Notes under the pieces: generated by a model
The model's input: the letters and a program-made list of their open reading frames with translations, nothing else
Told to the model about the DNA's origin: nothing
Databases searched by the model: none
IMG/VR virus record: IMGVR_UViG_3300013132_002633
Coordinates: 12,497-76,496 of that record
Strand: one strand, 5' to 3'
Source of the DNA: a virus
Length of the DNA stretch: 64,000 nt
Shown: piece after piece, positions 3,856 through 17,719 of the stretch
How the letters are laid out: each line of letters begins with the position of its first letter
Numbering within the stretch: the stretch's first letter is position 1
Made by a program: the position numbers and the translations under genes

Positions 3856-5145
3856 GTGATATTAAGTGATAAAATATATTTAAAGTTTATAACAAAAAAT
3901 AAAAATAAACACGCAAAGTGTGATGATATTATCGCTGCATTTATTTATAATTTTGAAGATAAATCCAAGTATTACATAAATTTTAGCCACACTGATGTTG
4001 TGACTGATATGTCTTTTAATGAATTTAAAGACATGTTGAATAATTTGAACAATGTTTGTGTTTATGTAAATAACAAAAAGCGATATAGATATTGGTTAAG
4101 CTGTAATTTAATAGATATTAATTTATTTGAGTTTATCAAAAATAATTCACTGATTGAGTGGTGTGATGATGTAACTGAAAATTATATGTCTATATCATTT
4201 GGTAATGTTAATGATTATAATTTGATAATTCCATATGTAATACATCAACGAATTTTTGATACAGAAGTAAAACAAATTGAAAGTTTACACAAAGAAAAAA
4301 CGGATACATATTGTTTTAAGTTCTTTAATAACATTGTAACCGATGCGCTATTTGAGGTAGAAAAAAATGGTATAGCGATTGATAAAAATATATTTTGCAA
4401 ATATTTTACTGCTAAAACATCCGACAACTATGTTTATACTGATTATCATATTTATAATCCAACTGGCAGACCGAGTAATTGTTTTGATGGAATAAATTAT
4501 GCAGCTCTAAAAAAAGATGATGGTTCACGATCAAGTTTTATTTCTAGATATGATGGTGGATATTTGTTGATGGTTGACTTTACTGGGTTTCATCCATATA
4601 TTGTTTCAAATTTAATAGGTTATAAGGTACCTGAAAATGAAACAATATACGAACATCTGGCAAAGATGTATTATGAAATTGAAAATGTGACTGTTGATAT
4701 TATTACCAAAAGTAAAAAGTTAACTATGGTAAATTTATATGGTCAAATCAAAGAACAATATCTGAACATTGAGTTTTTTCGAAAAACTGAAGAACTCAAA
4801 GAAAAGTACTGGGTTTCTTTTTTGGAAAAGGGATATGTTACAACTCCAATTTATAAACGTAAAATAACCAATAAGCATGTATCGGATGCTAATAAAAACA
4901 AATTATTTGCATATGTTATACAAGCTGCGGAAACTGAATATGGAATGGATAGATTAAATGCTTGTATTAAATATTCATATAATAAACAAATTGTACCGAT
5001 ATTATATAACTATGATGCTATATTATTTGACGTTGGTAATGTAAAAGATGAAGAAATTGCCGACTTGGTAAACATAATTAAAAATAAAAAATTTAAGGTA
5101 AAAGTTTATAAAGGTAATAATTACAACGATTTAATTCAGATGTAA
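3856..5145 (+). CDS. Divergent family A DNA polymerase-like protein
   Basis: TGRPSN, motif A MVDFTGFHP, motif B KKLTMVNLYG, IQAAETE, motif C YNYDAILFD. Confidence 0.75.
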   Translation: MILSDKIYLKFITKNKNKHAKCDDIIAAFIYNFEDKSKYYINFSHTDVVTDMSFNEFKDMLNNLNNVCVYVNNKKRYRYWLSCNLIDINLFEFIKNNSLIEWCDDVTENYMSISFGNVNDYNLIIPYVIHQRIFDTEVKQIESLHKEKTDTYCFKFFNNIVTDALFEVEKNGIAIDKNIFCKYFTAKTSDNYVYTDYHIYNPTGRPSNCFDGINYAALKKDDGSRSSFISRYDGGYLLMVDFTGFHPYIVSNLIGYKVPENETIYEHLAKMYYEIENVTVDIITKSKKLTMVNLYGQIKEQYLNIEFFRKTEELKEKYWVSFLEKGYVTTPIYKRKITNKHVSDANKNKLFAYVIQAAETEYGMDRLNACIKYSYNKQIVPILYNYDAILFDVGNVKDEEIADLVNIIKNKKFKVKVYKGNNYNDLIQM

Positions 5146-8958: not shown

Positions 8959-9252
8959 ATGGCAAAAAAATCTACAGTTTCAAAAGAATCTACACAACGA
9001 GATGAATTAATTGAGTTGTTGGCAAGTGAGCTTAATAAAGCAAATAAAGAAGGTGGCAAGATTGCATACTTTTTAGATGAACAAGAAAATCCAGCAGAAA
9101 TTAGTGATTGGATTAGCACAGGATCATCTATATTGGATTTAGCAATCAGTAACCGTCCGCACGGTGGTCTTCCAGTTGGCAAGATGGTTGAATTCAACGG
9201 ATTGGAAGGATGCGTAACCGAAGACACTATAATAAAAGTTATTATTGAATAA
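8959..9252 (+). CDS. recA: RecA/UvsX piece 1: 84-aa N-extein plus 13-aa N-intein
   Basis: WISTGSSILDLAIS...GGLPVGKMVEFNGLEG, then CVTEDTIIKVIIE*; likely start ATG 8959 because the track start lies inside the terminator. Confidence 0.9.
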   Translation: MAKKSTVSKESTQRDELIELLASELNKANKEGGKIAYFLDEQENPAEISDWISTGSSILDLAISNRPHGGLPVGKMVEFNGLEGCVTEDTIIKVIIE

Positions 9253-9707
9253 AAATCTCCAATCCAACTATTAAAAGAAAAAAATCTGATGATAGATTTA
9301 GAAAATTTGGAAAAATTAAAAAGAAATTTATGAATAGAATAGTAAAAGAAATAAAAGTTGGTGATGTTTTATCTCTCTTAGCAGAAGGTAAAAATATTAA
9401 AGTATTGACTCGTAACAACGAGTATGTAAACATTACAAATTATGTAGATAAAGGATTATTAGATACATTTAAAGTTACATTAGATAATGGATTTACAATA
9501 AAGGTCTCTAGAGAACATAAATTTTTTACAAATGTTGGTTGGGTAGAACAGAGAAATTTAATTAAAGAAAATCACAAAATCTTTTGTGAAGATGGTGAAT
9601 ATCGTACAATACAAGATATAGAATATATTGGAAAACACAAAATTGTAGATATCACCGTTGATTCAGATGATCATTCGTATTTTGGAAATGGTATGCTTAA
9701 TCATAAT
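9211..9707 (+). mobile_element. Atypically split intein RecA-1 (IntN 9211-9249, 13 aa; IntC 9330-9707, 126 aa) in Walker A
   Basis: Cys1 block A; IntC holds block B VSREHKFF, block F IVDITV..HSYFGNG and terminal HN followed by +1 Thr; splicing restores GLEG|TGKS. Confidence 0.88.
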
Positions 9708-10193
9708 ACAGGAAAATCATTGGTATCTGCACATGTTGTTGCTGATACTCAAAGAAAAGGTGGAGTTGCAGTTGTCATTGATACTGAAAACGCAGCTGCT
9801 CCTGAGTTCTGGAAAAGTTTGGGTGTAGATCTATCTAAGTTACTGTATGTTCAATGTGAAACCGTTGAAGATATTTTTGCTCAGATGGAAAAGATGATCG
9901 CAATTGTTCGTAAGAGCAACAAAGATCGCATTCTTACAATCATTGTTGATTCTGTAGCAGCAGCATCAACTAAGGCAGAACTAGAAAGTGATCATGGTAA
10001 AGATGGTTATGCAACTGGTAAGAGTATTATTATCAGCAAGGCGATGCGTAAGATTACTACCATGATTGGTCGTCAAAAGGTTCTTACTGTGTTTACCAAT
10101 CAACTTCGTCAAAATATAAATGCTATGGCATTTGGTGATAAATATTGTGTTGATCCGTATACAACAAAAATAAAAATTAGATATAAAATTTAA
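9330..10193 (+). CDS. recA: RecA/UvsX piece 2: IntC-1, 146-aa middle extein, 15-aa IntN-2
   Basis: TGKS, IDTENA, Walker B IIVDSVAA, FTNQLR, then CVDPYTTKIKIRYKI*. Confidence 0.92.
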   Translation: MNRIVKEIKVGDVLSLLAEGKNIKVLTRNNEYVNITNYVDKGLLDTFKVTLDNGFTIKVSREHKFFTNVGWVEQRNLIKENHKIFCEDGEYRTIQDIEYIGKHKIVDITVDSDDHSYFGNGMLNHNTGKSLVSAHVVADTQRKGGVAVVIDTENAAAPEFWKSLGVDLSKLLYVQCETVEDIFAQMEKMIAIVRKSNKDRILTIIVDSVAAASTKAELESDHGKDGYATGKSIIISKAMRKITTMIGRQKVLTVFTNQLRQNINAMAFGDKYCVDPYTTKIKIRYKI

Positions 10194-10249: not shown

Positions 10250-11287
10250 ATGATTTTACTAGAATATTTAGATATAAATTTAACGTGGAAGAAAAATAAA
10301 CCAATTTTTAAATTTATAATTAAAACGGAAAAAAGAAAAACTAAAGAATTTCCTCTTAAATGTATTGTAAATAACAAAAGAATATCTAAAACAGGCAAAG
10401 AATATTATATACATTATTTGGGAGAAATTGGAGAAGAAGTATATAACGAGAGAAAAAAGTTATATAGCATGTACAGTCTTATACCATTTTATATTAAAAC
10501 GTATAATAAAGATGTTGAGAAATTGAACGAATATCTTAAAATATTGAAAAGTAATAATGTGAACGGCATTAAAAAATTTTATTTGTCCGAAAAGGGAGCT
10601 GAAGCTAGAAAAATACAATCGGAATGGGGAATTAAACATTCAATGGAAATCTCATCTAGAAATAGAAAATTATGGAAAGAAGATGAGTATGTTAACAAAG
10701 TCAAATCAAATCAAGATTATTCTTATGAAAATCATGGGAAGAAAATTTCCGATTTCTATAAAAATCAAAAAAATAAAGATTTCATAAAAAGTGTCATGAA
10801 CTCCCCGAAGAGAATCGAAAAAATATCGTTATCATCTAAAAAAATGTGGGAACATGCAAAATCATTTAATAAAGAGATGTATTATAGAATGATAAATTCG
10901 CAAAAACATAAAAATTTTGAATTAAATGGATATAAACTTAATAATATCGAATATTTGGTAGGTAGTATATTAAACAATTTTTCTATAAATTGGGAATACG
11001 AAAAAATTTTTCAGTTTAAAACAACTTGTTATTTGCCCGATTTTTATGTAAGATCTAAAAATCTAATCATAGAATGTTATGGTGATTATTGGCACGCCAA
11101 TCCTAAATATTTAAACGAAAACGATTTTACACATAAAAATAGATCTGTGAAAGATGTATGGGCATACGACTCTAGAAAAAAAGAAATTTTTGAAAACAAT
11201 GAATTTTCTTACTTATTTTTCTGGGAAAATGATATTCTAAATAACATAGATGGTATAAAAAAAACAATATATGAATACACAAGATAA
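10250..11287 (+). CDS. Free-standing Vsr/DUF559-like homing endonuclease
   Basis: C-terminal YLPDFY..LIIECYGDYWHANP...FWENDI; basic N-terminal region; lies between intein halves. Confidence 0.8.
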   Translation: MILLEYLDINLTWKKNKPIFKFIIKTEKRKTKEFPLKCIVNNKRISKTGKEYYIHYLGEIGEEVYNERKKLYSMYSLIPFYIKTYNKDVEKLNEYLKILKSNNVNGIKKFYLSEKGAEARKIQSEWGIKHSMEISSRNRKLWKEDEYVNKVKSNQDYSYENHGKKISDFYKNQKNKDFIKSVMNSPKRIEKISLSSKKMWEHAKSFNKEMYYRMINSQKHKNFELNGYKLNNIEYLVGSILNNFSINWEYEKIFQFKTTCYLPDFYVRSKNLIIECYGDYWHANPKYLNENDFTHKNRSVKDVWAYDSRKKEIFENNEFSYLFFWENDILNNIDGIKKTIYEYTR

Positions 11288-12113
11288 ATACATAGAAGAA
11301 GAATTAACAATTGCCGAGTTTGCGGAAAGATTTTTAGGAATGAATAATTATTCATCTGAAAACGTTGAAGAAATAGATATATCGGATATGGATATAGAAA
11401 TATATGGTCGAGATTTAAAGTCCTCACAGGATTGCTATAATAAAATTAATAAATTTATAATCAAAACTCCATCGGAATATCATTACAGTGATGGTATACT
11501 GAAAGGCACAGATTTACATCGAATTATTGAAGATGGAGTTGAAATTCACTTGAAAGATCACAACGATTTCAAAAGGGTTAATGAACCAATAAAAGTTGTA
11601 GATTTCGATATTGAAAATACACACAATTATTATGCCAATGGTCGATTAAATCATAATACCGTAAGCGGTGGCAAGGCTTTGGCTTATCACTGTAGTGTTC
11701 GTGTTCGTTTGAACAACACTGGTAAGTTGAAAAAGGCAGAAGAAGTTATTGGCAACGAGTGTAAAGCAGTTGTTATCAAAAACAGAATGGGTCCGCCACA
11801 ACGTCAAGCTAACTTTGAAATCTACTTTGACAGCGGTATTGCTGACTATAGTAGTTGGATCAAAGTATTGAAGGAGAATAACATTATCAAACAAGGTGGT
11901 GCGTATTACTCTTACAGAAAAGAAGACGGTAGTGAATGGAAGTTCCAATCCAAAGACTTTGTATCTACCATGCAATCTGACAAGGTTTTAAAAGAAGAAT
12001 TATATCTTAAGATCTGTGATGCGGTTGTTATGAAATACAAAGATCCTAACAGTCAAATCGTTGAGGATGCTACTGTTGATACTGATGAAGAAACTGCTGG
12101 AAACGACGAATAA
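11271..12113 (+). CDS. recA: RecA/UvsX piece 3: IntC-2 plus 151-aa C-extein
   Basis: GGKALAYHCSVRVRL, VIKNRMGPP, IYFDSGI, GAYYSY. Confidence 0.92.
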   Translation: MNTQDKYIEEELTIAEFAERFLGMNNYSSENVEEIDISDMDIEIYGRDLKSSQDCYNKINKFIIKTPSEYHYSDGILKGTDLHRIIEDGVEIHLKDHNDFKRVNEPIKVVDFDIENTHNYYANGRLNHNTVSGGKALAYHCSVRVRLNNTGKLKKAEEVIGNECKAVVIKNRMGPPQRQANFEIYFDSGIADYSSWIKVLKENNIIKQGGAYYSYRKEDGSEWKFQSKDFVSTMQSDKVLKEELYLKICDAVVMKYKDPNSQIVEDATVDTDEETAGNDE

Positions 12114-13186
12114 TGAATGAGTTAACACCAATCGAACGAAAGAAATTGTTCTCAATGTTCGAGAATATAGAAAGAGATTCCGTCATAACAGGACTTAAAA
12201 AATCGCTAAATAGTGATGTTCTGTTGGTTGACGGATTGTAGTTAAATACCTATATTCGTAGTTTCATGGCGATACCATCTTTAAATGACGATGGACTTCA
12301 CACGGGTGGTATCGCCGGTTTTCTTAAAAGTGTAGGATACGCAATAAAATTATTGAGTCCTACCAGAGTTATAATTGTATTTGACGGAAAAGGTGGGTCT
12401 CAAAAAAGAAGAAAGATTTATCCAGACTACAAAAATGGACGTAGAACTGATATTAAATTAAACAGATCATATGATGATCTATCAAATTCGGTTATTGAAA
12501 AAGCCAATTTCAAAAAAGAATTGATACGTACTGTAAATTACCTCGACGTGTTGCCTGTTACTGTAATGGCTATTGATAATATCGAAGCAGATGATACGAT
12601 TGCATATCTAGCTAAACAAACATTCAAAGACAGTAAGGTTACAATTATGTCTACGGACAAAGATTTTTTACAGTTAGCGAGTGATCAAATAAATATTTGG
12701 AGTCCTGTAAAGAAAAAAATATTTGGTTGTAAAGAAATTATTGATGAATATGGAATAACATGTAAAAACTTCATATTTTACAGAATAATGGAAGGAGACG
12801 TAAGCGATAATATTACAGGTTTGGATGGCGTGGGATTAAAACGTGTTACACAAGCATTTCCTTTTTTGGGTGAAGATCCACAGGCGTGTTTACAACAAAT
12901 ATATAATTATAGTGAAAATAATCGTAGCAGATATAAGATTTACGAGCGAGTATTAGACAATAAATTATTATTGGAACGTAATTATGAACTCATGCAATTA
13001 CATAATACACAAATTCAATCCTTTACTCAATTGAGAATTGAAGAGATTATAAATAAACCAGTTCCAAAAATTGATAAAATGAGTTTTAGTAAACTGATTA
13101 CAGAAGATAAAATGTGGTCAAATATACCTAATTACATGTACTGGTTAAATGAGTGTTTTGGAAAATTAAATTCATTTGTTGAATAA
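12113..13186 (+). CDS. 5'-3' exonuclease/RNase H (FEN/PolI-N family) with an in-frame TAG at 12239-12241 (recoded or pseudogene)
   Basis: ATG 12113 overlaps the recA stop and is in frame with the 12266 ORF: VLLVDGL*LNTYIRSF; downstream VFDGKGGS, EADD, STDKDFLQ and GDVSDNITG are intact. Confidence 0.85.
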
Positions 13187-13297: not shown

Positions 13298-14116
13298 ATG
13301 ACTGAAAAAATTATAATAGATTCACTTCGTAAGTATGGATTGGACTTTCAAATAAAGTGCATAACGTGTCTGTTATCAGATCGTAGCTTTATGGAGAGAA
13401 TTCAAGATATTGTTGAGGCTGAATTTTTTGAAAGTGATGCACAAAAATGGATTCTTAAAGAAAGTGTAAAATATTTTAATGAATATAAAGATCTTCCAAC
13501 ACTAACTGTATTCAAGGTTAAAGTAGATACTGTTGAAAACGAGGTTCTTAAAAAATCTATTATAGATAGCCTAAAATTGGTTTATCAAAAGTTAAATGAT
13601 AACGATTTGAAATTTGTTAAAGAACAATTTTTGGAATTTTGTAAGAACCAAAAATTAAAGAATGCTATATTTGAAAGTGCTGATTTATTGGAAACAGGTC
13701 AATATGACAAAATAAAGATGGTGGTTGATACCGCCATGAAAGCTGGTATGGAAAGAAATATTGGTCATGAATACGATGTAGAAATCGAAAAGCGTATGAG
13801 TATCATGGCTCGTAACACAATAAAAACCAACTGGACTGAAATCGATACTATCATGGACGGTGGTCTTGGGCCAGGTGAACTTGGAATTGTTGTTGCGCCA
13901 GCAGGAATTGGCAAATGTATTGGTCCAAATACCGAAATTGAGATCGAATATCACGAATTTGGTATTGAAACATTATCAAGTTGCGGAAAATCATTTATAA
14001 TGTGGATTAATCCGTTTGAAAAATATAAAATAGACGATGTTGAATTACTAGGTTGGCAAGTTGAAAATGTTTTTTATGAAATTGAAAAAATAAAACAAGA
14101 AAAAACTAAAAATTAA
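13298..14116 (+). CDS. dnaB: DnaB/gp41 helicase piece 1: 206-aa N-extein plus 66-aa N-intein segment
   Basis: DGGLGPGELGIVVAPAGIGK, then CIGPNTEIEIEY... Confidence 0.9.
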   Translation: MTEKIIIDSLRKYGLDFQIKCITCLLSDRSFMERIQDIVEAEFFESDAQKWILKESVKYFNEYKDLPTLTVFKVKVDTVENEVLKKSIIDSLKLVYQKLNDNDLKFVKEQFLEFCKNQKLKNAIFESADLLETGQYDKIKMVVDTAMKAGMERNIGHEYDVEIEKRMSIMARNTIKTNWTEIDTIMDGGLGPGELGIVVAPAGIGKCIGPNTEIEIEYHEFGIETLSSCGKSFIMWINPFEKYKIDDVELLGWQVENVFYEIEKIKQEKTKN

Positions 14117-14185: not shown

Positions 14186-14911
14186 ATGAGTATTAAAAAA
14201 GAATTTTCAATATATCGATACCAATACTGGATGCAGAAATATGGTTTGACCGAAACCGACGCTAAAAATAAAGTCACATCAATTCAAAGAGAAAATGCGT
14301 TAAAATCATCAAAGAAGTTCACGCCAGATCGATCTTATTTAAAAAAAGAATATTGGATTAAAAAGAAAGGATATACTGAGTCAGATGCTGTCAAAAAAAT
14401 ATCTGAGATTCAATCGGAGTATTCAAAAAAATCCAGTAGATTCACAGGCAAAATTAGAACAATTGAGAGCAAAATTAAAATTTCAAACTCATTAAAATCT
14501 AAAATTGCCAAGATAGGCGGTGGCAATTGGGCAAAGCATTTTGGTCAATTTAATGGCAACTCTAAAATTGAAAAAGAATTTTATTTTTATATAAAAAATA
14601 ATATAAACACAAACGTTCAGGCAAATGTTCCTATATCAAATTATATAGTTGATGTTTTACATGAAACAAAAATAGTAGAATTTTATGGCGATTTTTGGCA
14701 CGCAAATCCTAAATTTTATGAATGTGATGACCTTATAAAATCGTTTAGTATCAATAAAACTGCAAATGAAATATGGATCAGTGATAATCGTAGAATTGAC
14801 ATATTACAAAAAATGGGGTATGATGTATTGATAATCTGGGAAAATGATTGGAAAAAAAACAAACAAGAGTGTATAGAAAAAATAAAAAAACATTATGAAA
14901 TTATTAATTAA
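14186..14911 (+). CDS. Free-standing Vsr/DUF559-like homing endonuclease
   Basis: IVEFYGDFWHANP...GYDVLIIWENDW; two N-terminal repeats YW..K.G.TE.DA..K...IQ. Confidence 0.82.
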   Translation: MSIKKEFSIYRYQYWMQKYGLTETDAKNKVTSIQRENALKSSKKFTPDRSYLKKEYWIKKKGYTESDAVKKISEIQSEYSKKSSRFTGKIRTIESKIKISNSLKSKIAKIGGGNWAKHFGQFNGNSKIEKEFYFYIKNNINTNVQANVPISNYIVDVLHETKIVEFYGDFWHANPKFYECDDLIKSFSINKTANEIWISDNRRIDILQKMGYDVLIIWENDWKKNKQECIEKIKKHYEIIN

Positions 14912-16007
14912 AAATGTCCGTGAAAATATTAAAATAAAAGATTTATTTGATAGATTAAAAATTAAAGATGAAGAAAATGCGATGGAACAGTTAAAATTTC
15001 CATTAAAAGTAAATACACCATTTGGTTATAAAAAAATTGTGACAGCGTTTCGTACTGAAAAACAAAAAACAATAACTTCTTATTTTGGTAACAATAAAAC
15101 ATTAAAGACTTCTGGAAAACATAGATTAAAAGTAAACGGGAGTTGGAAATTCGTAGATGAAATAAACTCTGGAGAGCTAGTAGAAACTGAAGTTGGTACC
15201 ACAAAATTAGTATCAAAAAAAGAAGGTCGAGACGAGATATTATATGATATATCGGTTGATGAAGTGCATTGTTATTATAGCAATGGCATTCTTTCCCATA
15301 ATTCATGGGTACTTGCCAAGTTGGGAGCTGAAGCAATGAAACAAGGTAAAAATGTTCTTCACTTCACACTAGAATTAAATGAAAACTATGTTGGATTACG
15401 ATATGATAGTTGTTTTACTGGAATTGATTTCCAAAATATCAGAAACAACATTGACATTGTAAAACAAAAGATTTCAGAAGTGCCTGGTAAACTTGTTATC
15501 AAGTATTTTCCATTGAAGACGGTATCAGCTCATAGCTTAAAATCTCATACTGAAAGATTGGCTGTATTGGGTACAAAAATTGACATGATCGTTGTAGATT
15601 ATGCAGATATTCTTCGTCCAGTACACAGTGATCGTAATAGCAACAGTTATAGTGAGGCTGGTGGTATTTACGAAGAGCTAAGAAGTATCGCGGGTGAACT
15701 TCAAATTCCAATTTGGAGTGCAAGTCAAGCGAATAGGTGTCATTTGGTTGATGATCAAGTACTTACAAATCGAGGAACGATTAGACTAGGAGATTTGACT
15801 ATTAACGATTTGGTTTTGACTCACAAAGGACTTAAAAAAGTAACAAAAATTTTTCCAACCGAAACGCAGCCTGTTTATAAAATTAAATTAAGATCTGGTA
15901 AAGAGATTAATATATCTGCAAATCATAGAGTTCCAACCGCCGACGGCAGATTAAAATCATTAGAAACTGGGTTGTCTGTAGGCGACAAGTTATTTACAAA
16001 AAAATAA
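14895..16007 (+). CDS. dnaB: DnaB helicase piece 2: IntC-1, 145-aa middle extein, 89-aa IntN-2
   Basis: HFTLEL, Walker B IVVDYADIL, IPIWSASQANR, then CHLVDDQV...ISANHRVPT. Confidence 0.92.
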   Translation: MKLLIKNVRENIKIKDLFDRLKIKDEENAMEQLKFPLKVNTPFGYKKIVTAFRTEKQKTITSYFGNNKTLKTSGKHRLKVNGSWKFVDEINSGELVETEVGTTKLVSKKEGRDEILYDISVDEVHCYYSNGILSHNSWVLAKLGAEAMKQGKNVLHFTLELNENYVGLRYDSCFTGIDFQNIRNNIDIVKQKISEVPGKLVIKYFPLKTVSAHSLKSHTERLAVLGTKIDMIVVDYADILRPVHSDRNSNSYSEAGGIYEELRSIAGELQIPIWSASQANRCHLVDDQVLTNRGTIRLGDLTINDLVLTHKGLKKVTKIFPTETQPVYKIKLRSGKEINISANHRVPTADGRLKSLETGLSVGDKLFTKK

Positions 16008-17389
16008 TATTTTGTGATGCAGACCATATATTTAATATTATATGATTAACACTAAATTTAGAGATATTGTTCATTTAATGAACCAGAAGCCGTTCCGTGA
16101 TTTTAAAAATGATTTAAGCGAATGCGTAATCAGTAACTTAAAAAAGGTCATATTAGAGTTTGATAAAAAATATATCTTGAATAACAAGAAAGAAGTCATA
16201 CAGAACATGATTAGATATAATGTTGATGGTGATTGGGTAGAGAGATTAAAAAATGGTGATAAATATAAAAAAGACGGATTTTCCATGGAAGCATTGATTG
16301 TGAAATATGGCGAATCTGTTGCAAAGTTAATATCAGATGAAAGAAACGATAAAGTTGCGATTACCAAGGATAAATATATACGAAACCATAGTGAACATGA
16401 ATGGGAAGAATTATGTAAAAAAAAGAGAAGTAATTTAGGACTTGATGGTTATATTAAAAAATATGGACATGAAGAAGGTTTAAAAAAATGGAACAATTAC
16501 TTAAAAAAATGGAAAATTGGCATTGAAAAGAAAAAAGCTGATGGTTGGAAAAATGGTTTAACGATTGAGGAATATCAAACTAGATATGGAATAAAAGAAG
16601 GATATGAACGTTGGAGAAAAAGAATAAATAGTAGAAAATATACTCTTTCTTTAGAAGGATATATTAATAAACACGGTGGTGAGTTGGGAAAAAAGTTGTG
16701 GGGTGAATATTGTAAATCAAATAATAAAACGTCGTTGGAGTCTTTTATCAAAAGATACGGTGAGAAGTTTGGAAAAGAAAAGTACGTTTTGATGCTAGAA
16801 AAGATCTTTTGTTATTTAAAAAACCGAAGGTGTTATAGCATAATTTCCCAAGAATTATTTAAAAATGTAGCAGATAAATTGGAAAATAAAAATGATATAA
16901 AATATGCAATACAAAATGGAGAGCAATATTTTTTTATTAATGAAAATTTTTGTAAAGGTATGTTTGTCGATTTTAAATATGGAAACATAATTATAGAATT
17001 TTATGGAGATTTTTGGCATGCTAATCCATCTAAATACAAAGAAAACGATATAGTAAAACTTCCTAATAACAATAAATTGGCTAATAAAGTTTGGAGTGAA
17101 GATAAAGAAAAAATTGATTGGTTGGTAAAACGAGGATACAATGTAATGATTGTATGGGAAAGTGATTATTTGAAAAATAAAAATGAAGTGGTACAGAGTT
17201 GTTTAAATTTCATAAAACAGAACTATAAATAATATGACAGAAAAAATTACAAAAGAACACGATTTAAATCCTAATGAGTTTGAGTTAGATGAAATAGTCA
17301 ACATAGAGTGTATAGGTGATCATGAAACGGTTGACATTACTGTGGATGACACGCATATGTTTTTTGCAAATGGTGTATATACACACAAT
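15738..17389 (+). mobile_element. Conventionally split intein DnaB-2 (IntN 15738-16004, 89 aa; IntC 17234-17389, 52 aa), gp41-8-like, with an intervening endonuclease gene
   Basis: Block B SANH lies in IntN; IntC ETVDITVDDTHMFFANGVYTHN followed by Ser; junction SQANR|SAADE resembles the gp41-8 site as I recall it. Confidence 0.9.
16042..17232 (+). CDS. Free-standing Vsr/DUF559-like homing endonuclease with tandem helical repeats
   Basis: IIEFYGDFWHANP...GYNVMIVWESDY; 4-6 repeats of L-E-x-Y-I-x-K-Y-G-x-x-x-G-x-x-x-W. Confidence 0.82.
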   Translation: MINTKFRDIVHLMNQKPFRDFKNDLSECVISNLKKVILEFDKKYILNNKKEVIQNMIRYNVDGDWVERLKNGDKYKKDGFSMEALIVKYGESVAKLISDERNDKVAITKDKYIRNHSEHEWEELCKKKRSNLGLDGYIKKYGHEEGLKKWNNYLKKWKIGIEKKKADGWKNGLTIEEYQTRYGIKEGYERWRKRINSRKYTLSLEGYINKHGGELGKKLWGEYCKSNNKTSLESFIKRYGEKFGKEKYVLMLEKIFCYLKNRRCYSIISQELFKNVADKLENKNDIKYAIQNGEQYFFINENFCKGMFVDFKYGNIIIEFYGDFWHANPSKYKENDIVKLPNNNKLANKVWSEDKEKIDWLVKRGYNVMIVWESDYLKNKNEVVQSCLNFIKQNYK

Positions 17390-17719
17390 TCAGCAGCAGA
17401 CGAAGACATTGTTATGGCACATCACGCTGCCGACAGTTATCGTAAAATCATGACTGCCGATTTCGTAATGAGTGTGTCTCGCAAGACAAACGATAAAGTA
17501 AGTAATACAGCACGATTCCACATTATTAAAAATCGTTTCGGACCAGATGGTTTGACATTCCCAAGCAAAATGAATGCTGGCTGTGGTCAGATTGAGATTT
17601 ATGGTGAAAACAGTCGTGAAGGTCTGGCTGTGTTGAATGAAATGATGGACGGTGAGAACAATGTGAAAAAAGTCTTAAAAAATAAATGGAACGCACATAA
17701 TGCTAATGACGATGAATAA
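17234..17719 (+). CDS. dnaB: DnaB helicase piece 3: IntC-2 plus 109-aa C-extein
   Basis: ADSYRKIMTADFVM and the arginine-finger motif IIKNRFGPDG. Confidence 0.92.
   Translation: MTEKITKEHDLNPNEFELDEIVNIECIGDHETVDITVDDTHMFFANGVYTHNSAADEDIVMAHHAADSYRKIMTADFVMSVSRKTNDKVSNTARFHIIKNRFGPDGLTFPSKMNAGCGQIEIYGENSREGLAVLNEMMDGENNVKKVLKNKWNAHNANDDE

Follow-up and report, generated by a model that had tools for sequence, protein, structure and literature searches.

Three-piece RecA and DnaB genes in an uncultured lake phage, with split inteins whose charge polarity is probably inherited by lineage

The RecA recombinase and the DnaB helicase of an uncultured lake phage are each encoded as three proteins. 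In the reading that we favour, to which we assign a probability of roughly 0.6, each enzyme would be assembled by two trans-splicing events, and the alternating charge polarity of the four split inteins involved was inherited with the intein lineages and is not required for their orthogonality. A 2009 study reported genes fractured by split inteins, the Vsr-like endonucleases that accompany them and opposite local charges, in both polarities, on the intein halves (Dassa, London, Stoddard, Schueler-Furman and Pietrokovski; PMC2677866); the three-piece layout is a variant of such genes. Protein engineering calls for sets of split inteins free of cross-reaction, preferably with very short tags, and this phage and its relatives provide natural sets that must work side by side in one cell and in one gene, with N-terminal pieces of 13 and 15 residues.

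Results

Two core genes are each divided into three pieces

The sequence analysed, called the window below, is a 64,000-nucleotide part (positions 12,497 to 76,496) of a 76.5-kb IMG/VR virus record (IMGVR_UViG_3300013132_002633) which is ~25% complete. Its RecA/UvsX-like gene consists of three ORFs (8959-9252, 9330-10193 and 11271-12113), as does its DnaB/gp41-like gene (13298-14116, 14895-16007 and 17234-17719), and the fractured region is flanked by a gp32-like gene and a ribonucleotide reductase (Table 1). In Pfam searches the pieces match RecA or DnaB_C together with intein/HINT domains, and the intervening ORFs match DUF559/Vsr-like nucleases. The halves of each intein lie on the same strand, each in frame with its extein, and the split is conserved in relatives.

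Table 1. Features of the fractured RecA and DnaB genes, in window coordinates
Feature	Position	Strand	Basis
RecA N-extein, 84 aa, ends GLEG in P-loop	8959..9210	+	alignment to intact RecA of relative L017
RecA-1 IntN, 13 aa (CVTEDTIIKVIIE), net charge -2; stop codon 9250-9252	9211..9249	+	IntN of relatives, with the same stop
RecA-1 homing-endonuclease remnant, mini-ORF ending ..NLEKLKRNL; TGA overlaps the ATG of IntC-1	9289..9333	+	tail common to L087, L088 and L089
RecA-1 IntC, 126 aa, blocks B, F and G, ends HN; net charge -2, first 10 residues +2	9330..9707	+	
RecA middle extein, 146 aa, Thr+1 to GDKY	9708..10145	+	
RecA-2 IntN, 15 aa (CVDPYTTKIKIRYKI), starts with Cys, net charge +3	10146..10190	+	
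Free-standing Vsr/DUF559-like homing endonuclease between RecA-2 halves; 17-nt overlap with start of IntC-2	10250..11287	+	
RecA-2 IntC, 129 aa, net charge -13; E9', E10' and E11' on IntN-pairing strand	11271..11657	+	
RecA C-extein, 151 aa	11658..12110	+	alignment to intact RecA
DnaB N-extein, 206 aa, ends GIGK	13298..13915	+	
DnaB-1 IntN, 66 aa (beta1-beta2 plus conserved extra segment), net charge -6	13916..14113	+	
Vsr-like homing endonuclease between DnaB-1 halves	14186..14911	+	
DnaB-1 IntC, 136 aa, block B present, net charge +6	14895..15302	+	
DnaB middle extein, 145 aa	15303..15737	+	
DnaB-2 IntN, 89 aa, canonical split, gp41-1-like, blocks A and B, net charge +7	15738..16004	+	
Vsr-like homing endonuclease between DnaB-2 halves	16042..17232	+	
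DnaB-2 IntC, 52 aa, net charge -11	17234..17389	+	
DnaB C-extein, 109 aa	17390..17716	+	

An earlier note on this DNA had read both middle ORFs as having the order IntC-extein-IntN. This order is confirmed, each chain being made up of IntC-1, an extein core and IntN-2 (126, 146 and 15 aa in RecA; 136, 145 and 89 aa in DnaB). We propose that the middle polypeptide would thereby serve two independent protein trans-splicing reactions, supplying the C-half of intein 1 and the N-half of intein 2. The chain order is that of SICLOPPS, but the parent inteins of the two halves are 28% identical for RecA and 31% for DnaB. The halves are non-cognate and would therefore be expected to ligate on both sides and not to circularise the middle piece. 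Such chains are common in nature: clustered at 90% identity, the best 120 matches of each search include 26 clusters for RecA and at least 23 for DnaB.

All four junctions are set by one relative (L017), in which RecA (GLEG|TGKS and GDKY|VVSGG) and the 460-aa DnaB are both uninterrupted, so that all four intein sites are empty. Another relative (L001) has RecA-2 as its sole RecA intein, and both RecA sites are empty in 76 of the 96 related viral loci of our first sample. Contiguous inteins occupy RecA site 1 in L107, L109 and L111, and site 2 in L124, L126, L130 and L132 among others. Empty, single-intein and contiguous alleles are thus all present among relatives, and the empty and single-intein alleles indicate that the four inteins are separate mobile insertions.

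Several related loci display further insertions or intermediate forms. The contiguous RecA-1 intein of L109 (4453-4863), like those of L107 and L111, has a Met exactly where IntC begins in its split relatives (..VIIE-M-KKEK..), which suggests that a split intein fused again or that the split is very recent; within this family the contiguous and the split form interconvert. Two RecA middle pieces (P0068 and P0092) end in other short IntN sequences (CINPDTTK.. and CVNPDTEI..) a few residues upstream of the RecA-2 site, which is to say at a third intein site in the same loop. Just past IntC-2, after ..TSGG, the RecA genes of L092 (~4264-4700) and L139 (2659-3800) hold an additional insertion. That of L139 contains a 339-aa ORF with a ..GDYWHANP.. 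endonuclease motif, and beyond it the extein continues in a different frame. This insertion resembles an intron that brings its own endonuclease, in addition to the inteins. Finally, a terminase-like gene (L118:2690-6336) is cut in its Walker A motif (..TGK|C..) by a split intein with a short N-half, and a Vsr-like endonuclease lies between the halves.

Four divergent inteins, three of them cut after beta2

All four inteins begin with Cys1 and end in HN, with a +1 nucleophile that is Thr in RecA and Ser in DnaB. The splicing residues H63, D107, H125 and N126 are invariant across 50 homologues, block B and the block F Asp are present, and Pfam Intein_splicing and PT-HINT matches support a HINT domain. 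On these sequence features the four would belong to class 1 (HINT) inteins and are predicted to splice. Once reconstituted they are 24-34% identical to one another. The nearest solved relatives of RecA-1 are gp41-1, NpuDnaB and, distantly, VidaL; a search of the PDB gave no significant sequence match for RecA-2.

RecA-1, RecA-2 and DnaB-1 are cut directly after beta2, and DnaB-2 at the canonical site. The two RecA inteins have the S1-type split, with IntN of 13 aa (RecA-1) and 15 aa (RecA-2). DnaB-1 shares the split point, but its IntN bears ~46 to 60 residues beyond beta1-beta2 in all relatives. IntN is 13-14 residues long throughout the RecA-1 family (window 9211-9249 and 15 related loci). 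One RecA-2 sub-lineage (P0018, P0032, P0034, P0038, L108 and L139) carries a conserved IntN tail of ~20 residues after beta2 (..DENSEFY.E.H.KL..), and this tail is found with both the basic and the acidic types of charged strand described below.

An AlphaFold2 (AF2) model of a natural contiguous RecA-2 intein (L126; pLDDT 96.2) matches solved inteins with TM scores of up to 0.80 and contains a pair of strands (residues 8-13 and 16-21) with a turn of two residues between them, and then a helix (22-30). The split point of RecA-2 would accordingly fall, in this model, at the turn of the beta2/beta3 hairpin, and a split at the turn means that the first IntC strand would pair directly with IntN. 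We took the hairpin register from the DSSP string of this one model and carried it to RecA-1 and DnaB-1 by helix anchoring, which places IntN residue i opposite IntC residue j' with i + j' = 21 in window numbering. For RecA-2 the predicted pairs are K10-E11', R12-E9' and K8-T13'. The short IntN of RecA-1, RecA-2 and DnaB-1 may thus dock by re-forming the hairpin with the first IntC strand, with one face hydrophobic and the other lined by cross-strand ion pairs.

Cognate halves carry complementary charges

The charges quoted in the earlier note for the RecA inteins (-2 for IntN-1, +3 for IntN-2 and an acidic start to IntC-2) are correct. Its description of IntC-1 as starting basic stands over the first 10 residues (+2) and no further, the net charge being 0 over 20 residues and -2 over the whole. 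RecA-2 IntC has a charge of -13 overall, of which -11 falls in the first 45 residues. The corresponding values for DnaB are -6 (N) and +6 (C) for intein 1 and +7 (N) and -11 (C) for intein 2. Both genes therefore alternate, intein 1 being acidic-N/basic-C and intein 2 basic-N/acidic-C, and the presence of two basic halves on one middle chain is clearer for DnaB than for RecA. As a measure of rarity, each value was compared with equal-length windows of the phage's own proteins. The charges of RecA-1 do not rise above chance by this measure, because 20% and 16% of windows are at least as extreme as its IntN (13 residues) and IntC start (10 residues), respectively. Those of RecA-2 IntC (-11 in 45 aa) and DnaB-2 IntC (-11 in 52 aa) are rare, at ~0.3% of windows.

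At the split hairpin, cognate halves do carry complementary charges, strikingly so in RecA-2. RecA-2 IntN residues K8, K10 and R12 would face E9', E10' and E11' of IntC, and KKR occurs with EEE in most RecA-2 sequences from viral and metagenome loci. Both sides are reversed in one sub-lineage, the sole case of such a flip (L108 and L139), where positions 8/10/12 are E/E/E and 9'/10'/11' are K/Q/K; across the RecA-2 family, no like-charged combination of these two sets of positions was seen. An acidic residue occupies position 9' in 18 of the 23 distinct split forms, compared with one of the seven contiguous ones (Fisher p = 0.0045, a value that ignores relatedness). The extra acid in the split forms agrees with the published view that charge networks are stronger in natural split inteins than in those that splice in cis (10.1101/546465). 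In none of 18 pairs from the RecA-1 family do IntN position 9 and IntC position 7' carry charges of the same sign, and the two sequences with K9 (the window and L098) are the two with E7'.

We propose that these ion pairs would help cognate halves to meet, and that they would be stronger in split than in contiguous relatives, with a polarity that flips pairwise. It is tentatively possible that inteins cut after beta2 choose their partner largely through such an ion-pair zipper. The basic- and acidic-type RecA-2 inteins might then be mutually orthogonal, and the four window inteins might constitute a ready-made orthogonal ligation set with tags of 13 and 15 residues, although we would not expect all of this to hold.

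Polarity is the same with and without a second intein

At each of the 15 loci that yielded a split RecA-1 IntN, this half is acidic regardless of what occupies site 2, and RecA-2 IntN is basic with site 1 empty, contiguous or split. The charges of DnaB-1 IntC and DnaB-2 IntN are likewise the same in single- and double-intein genes, DnaB IntC-1 being slightly less basic with IntN-2 on the chain (+2.5 versus +3.6 over 15 residues). The proposal that both halves on the RecA middle chain are basic does not survive comparison with relatives. Over its first 12 residues, IntC-1 ranges from -2 to +3 across the 26 natural middle-piece clusters and is net negative in nine of them, including close relatives of the window, so this property is not conserved for RecA. 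Nor do RecA and DnaB embody two different solutions, as had been suggested, since DnaB alternates in polarity just as RecA does.

RecA-1 and DnaB-1 do share polarity, as the earlier note pointed out, and they are co-resident in five records (the window, G001, G002, G003 and G004). They are also alike in being cut after beta2, in being inserted at a P-loop and in their acidic-N/basic-C type. RecA-1 IntC position 7' is never basic in these five records (E, E, I, Q and Q), and it is basic in four of six records with DnaB site 1 empty. The numbers are small and confounded by relatedness; the pattern could hint at avoidance of the acidic IntN of DnaB-1.

We scored predicted ion pairs for all combinations of the three beta2-split inteins. 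The resulting matrix is diagonal in the window (2/2/2 versus at most 1 off the diagonal), shows weak discrimination in G001 and shows none in G002, G003 and G004. As a general predictor of cognate pairing the score was therefore rejected. The cognate RecA-1 pair of G002 scores -2, which indicates that the register model is imperfect, and the clean diagonal in the window means that charge may truly contribute to specificity there. The window's K9 makes the pair that would skip the middle extein (IntN-1 with IntC-2) mildly attractive, whereas selection for orthogonality would work the other way.

The middle chains and their capacity for self-docking

It had also been argued that the halves on the DnaB middle chain are sterically redundant, both containing block B. 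Block B is indeed found on both. Redundancy alone would be an unreliable barrier, however, given that fragments of one intein can splice even when cuts at different sites make them overlap (PMC7090010). Moreover, the ~46 to 60 extra residues of DnaB-1 IntN in all relatives imply that DnaB-1 IntC accepts a bulky partner. Divergence between the two DnaB IntN sequences, which share one of their first 13 residues by hand count, is the likelier barrier. An AF2 model of the window's RecA middle piece, built on a 50-sequence alignment, shows folded cores of IntC-1 and RecA, whereas both ends of IntC-1 (residues 1-9 and 115-126) and the IntN-2 tail of 15 residues stay disordered (pLDDT <50). This points weakly to a middle piece that would not complement itself, AF2 being no specificity test.

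Endonucleases and the RecA-1 gap

DUF559/Vsr-like ORFs lie between the halves of three of the inteins, and RecA-1 retains a 14-codon endonuclease tail. This mini-ORF lies in the 78-nt gap after IntN-1, and its tail is the same as that of the full endonuclease of L088 and of the remnants in L087 and L089. The IntN stop falls at the same place, 13 or 14 residues in, in 15 related loci. Because of the conserved endonuclease tail, we read the gap as that of a decayed fractured gene and not as a frameshifted contiguous intein. The hidden frameshifted intein was considered as a candidate and rejected on the strength of this tail and of the ATGA overlap with the start of IntC.

The two acidic-type RecA-2 loci, L108 and L139, have no endonuclease gene between their halves. 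In the window, two IntC ORFs overlap the end of the upstream endonuclease by 17 nt (11271-11287 and 14895-14911), a third has the ATGA overlap with the remnant (9330-9333), and the fourth starts after a 1-nt gap (17232-17234). This arrangement suggests that the IntC pieces are translationally coupled to the upstream endonuclease.

Discussion

We read the alternating polarity as a trait that each lineage passes on, which co-residence neither requires nor adjusts. It would have come with four separately mobile intein lineages, and orthogonality would arise mainly from sequence divergence (24-34% identity), from differing beta1 segments, from differing split sites (in DnaB) and from the extra IntN segment of DnaB-1. 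In the window genome, alternation probably adds some discrimination. The earlier note had gone further and envisaged a charge code that enforces orthogonality. What remains of that idea is the complementarity of cognate halves at the split junction, which for RecA-2 can be followed residue by residue; the enforcing code itself is unsupported.

Selection of opposite polarities in co-resident inteins, as a mechanism against self-cyclisation and extein skipping, would account for the alternation in both window genes and for the diagonal ion-pair matrix. The short IntN peptides do differ mostly on their charged face, and a split NpuDnaB intein has been made orthogonal by charge engineering (10.1101/546465). 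We nevertheless consider it unlikely, because single-intein genes show the same polarity, and because the IntC-1 starts of RecA middle pieces extend into negative charge. The RecA of G004 (locus L108) is joined by an acidic-N RecA-1 and an acidic-type RecA-2, two inteins of the same polarity, in a genome that also contains DnaB-1 and DnaB-2 and has a non-diagonal matrix. In addition, the window's K9 reduces the repulsion of the skipping pair, the charges of RecA-1 are ordinary for the proteome, and a charge-swapped NpuDnaE IntN still spliced with wild-type IntC (10.1101/546465). A different view is that orthogonality is simply incomplete, such that minor cyclisation, extein skipping and RecA/DnaB cross-splicing are tolerated and yield is set by kinetics or local concentration. 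In an orthogonality screen, 15 of 16 unrelated split inteins proved orthogonal without design, and the residual cross-signal came mostly from inteins cut at atypical sites that had one short fragment (PMC7090010). That residual signal, the common polarity and split type of RecA-1 and DnaB-1 in five records, and the C1, T6 and hydrophobic face shared by the IntN peptides speak for this view. Against this stand the low identity of the inteins, the undocked IntN-2 tail in the AF2 model, and the fact that both genes serve core replication and recombination and that the arrangement recurs in dozens of 90% identity clusters; we find incomplete orthogonality of this kind rather doubtful.

Two further readings would dispense with trans-splicing at one or more sites. 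The pieces might be decaying relics of genes that are no longer assembled, as the reduction of the RecA-1 endonuclease to a remnant would allow; the incompleteness of the record also means that intact copies could exist elsewhere. All six ORFs are open, however, the catalytic residues and extein motifs are invariant in 50 homologues, and G001 has the same layout at 60-70% identity, all of which makes decay highly improbable. Equally hard to credit is a RecA-1 that is truly contiguous, with a stop codon that reflects an assembly error or a programmed frameshift and a RecA middle piece that does not exist. The IntC frame is open upstream to ~9249 by hand reading, next to an A-run at GAA TAA AAA, and contiguous relatives are known, but the stop recurs in the 15 related loci, in several related loci the gap contains an endonuclease gene, complete or decayed, and the window's own gap holds the conserved tail with its ATGA overlap onto the start of IntC. 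Three polypeptides per gene and a polarity inherited by lineage thus remain our preferred account.

On this account, repeated invasion by inteins and endonucleases can cut essential phage genes in three without visible extra adaptation. The survey of relatives separates features bound to a lineage (polarity and split site) from one that distinguishes split inteins from contiguous ones (the added acid at 9'). The natural charge-reversed pair of RecA-2 types, basic and acidic, offers a clean test of electrostatics in partner choice.

Our search of the open literature found no description of natural three-piece genes. The names VidaL UvsX-1 and UvsX-2 possibly denote two split inteins of one gene.

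The closest parallel is with the fractured genes described in 2009 (PMC2677866). These share the same-strand order of extein-IntN, free-standing Vsr-like endonuclease and IntC-extein, and phage gp41/DnaB is a known host gene. The present case differs in having two elements per gene, in two genes, which gives rise to the IntC-extein-IntN middle polypeptides, in that three of the four inteins are cut after beta2 and not at the canonical site, and in that the endonuclease of one has been lost. Among S1-site inteins, VidaL (PDB 6vgv) has a 16-aa IntN and PolB16 OarG a 15-aa IntN (PMC10189870). The RecA inteins resemble both in their very short IntN (13 and 15 aa), their long IntC with blocks B, F and G and their split position (PMC13014065). 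They are distant in sequence: VidaL was matched by a member of the RecA-1 family alone (E = 7e-6), and the RecA-2 model is 15% identical to VidaL and 12-13% identical to PolB16 in fold alignment. Assignment of RecA-1 or RecA-2 as a VidaL allele was rejected, the matches being distant. At 13 aa, the RecA-1 IntN is shorter than the 15-37 aa range of natural atypically split inteins (PMC13014065), and its splicing is a prediction. DnaB-2 resembles gp41-1 (PDB 6qaz), with which residues 6-88 of its IntN align (E = 4e-10) and with which it shares the canonical split and a basic-N/acidic-C polarity (PMC2677866). Unlike gp41-1, it shares its gene with a second, atypically split intein, and its sequence is divergent.

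Engineered systems provide the remaining comparisons. The middle pieces have the chain topology of SICLOPPS (IntC-extein-IntN) and follow the same logic as engineered three-segment ligation, or 'protein transposition' (IntA-C-insert-IntB-N; PMC12707363, PMC11185735). Unlike those constructs they are natural, and they differ from SICLOPPS in that the halves on a chain are non-cognate (24-34% identity), so that ligation is expected rather than cyclisation. The role of charge in capture-and-collapse assembly has been summarised (PMC12707363), and charge swaps produced orthogonality for NpuDnaB but not for NpuDnaE (Beyer et al., bioRxiv 10.1101/546465). The phage inteins have in common with that work the complementary charges on paired strands, whose reversal alters partner choice in some inteins. 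The engineered swaps concerned beta3/beta6 of canonically split inteins, whereas here the charges lie on the beta2/beta3 hairpin at the S1 split, and their reversal has occurred naturally within one family.
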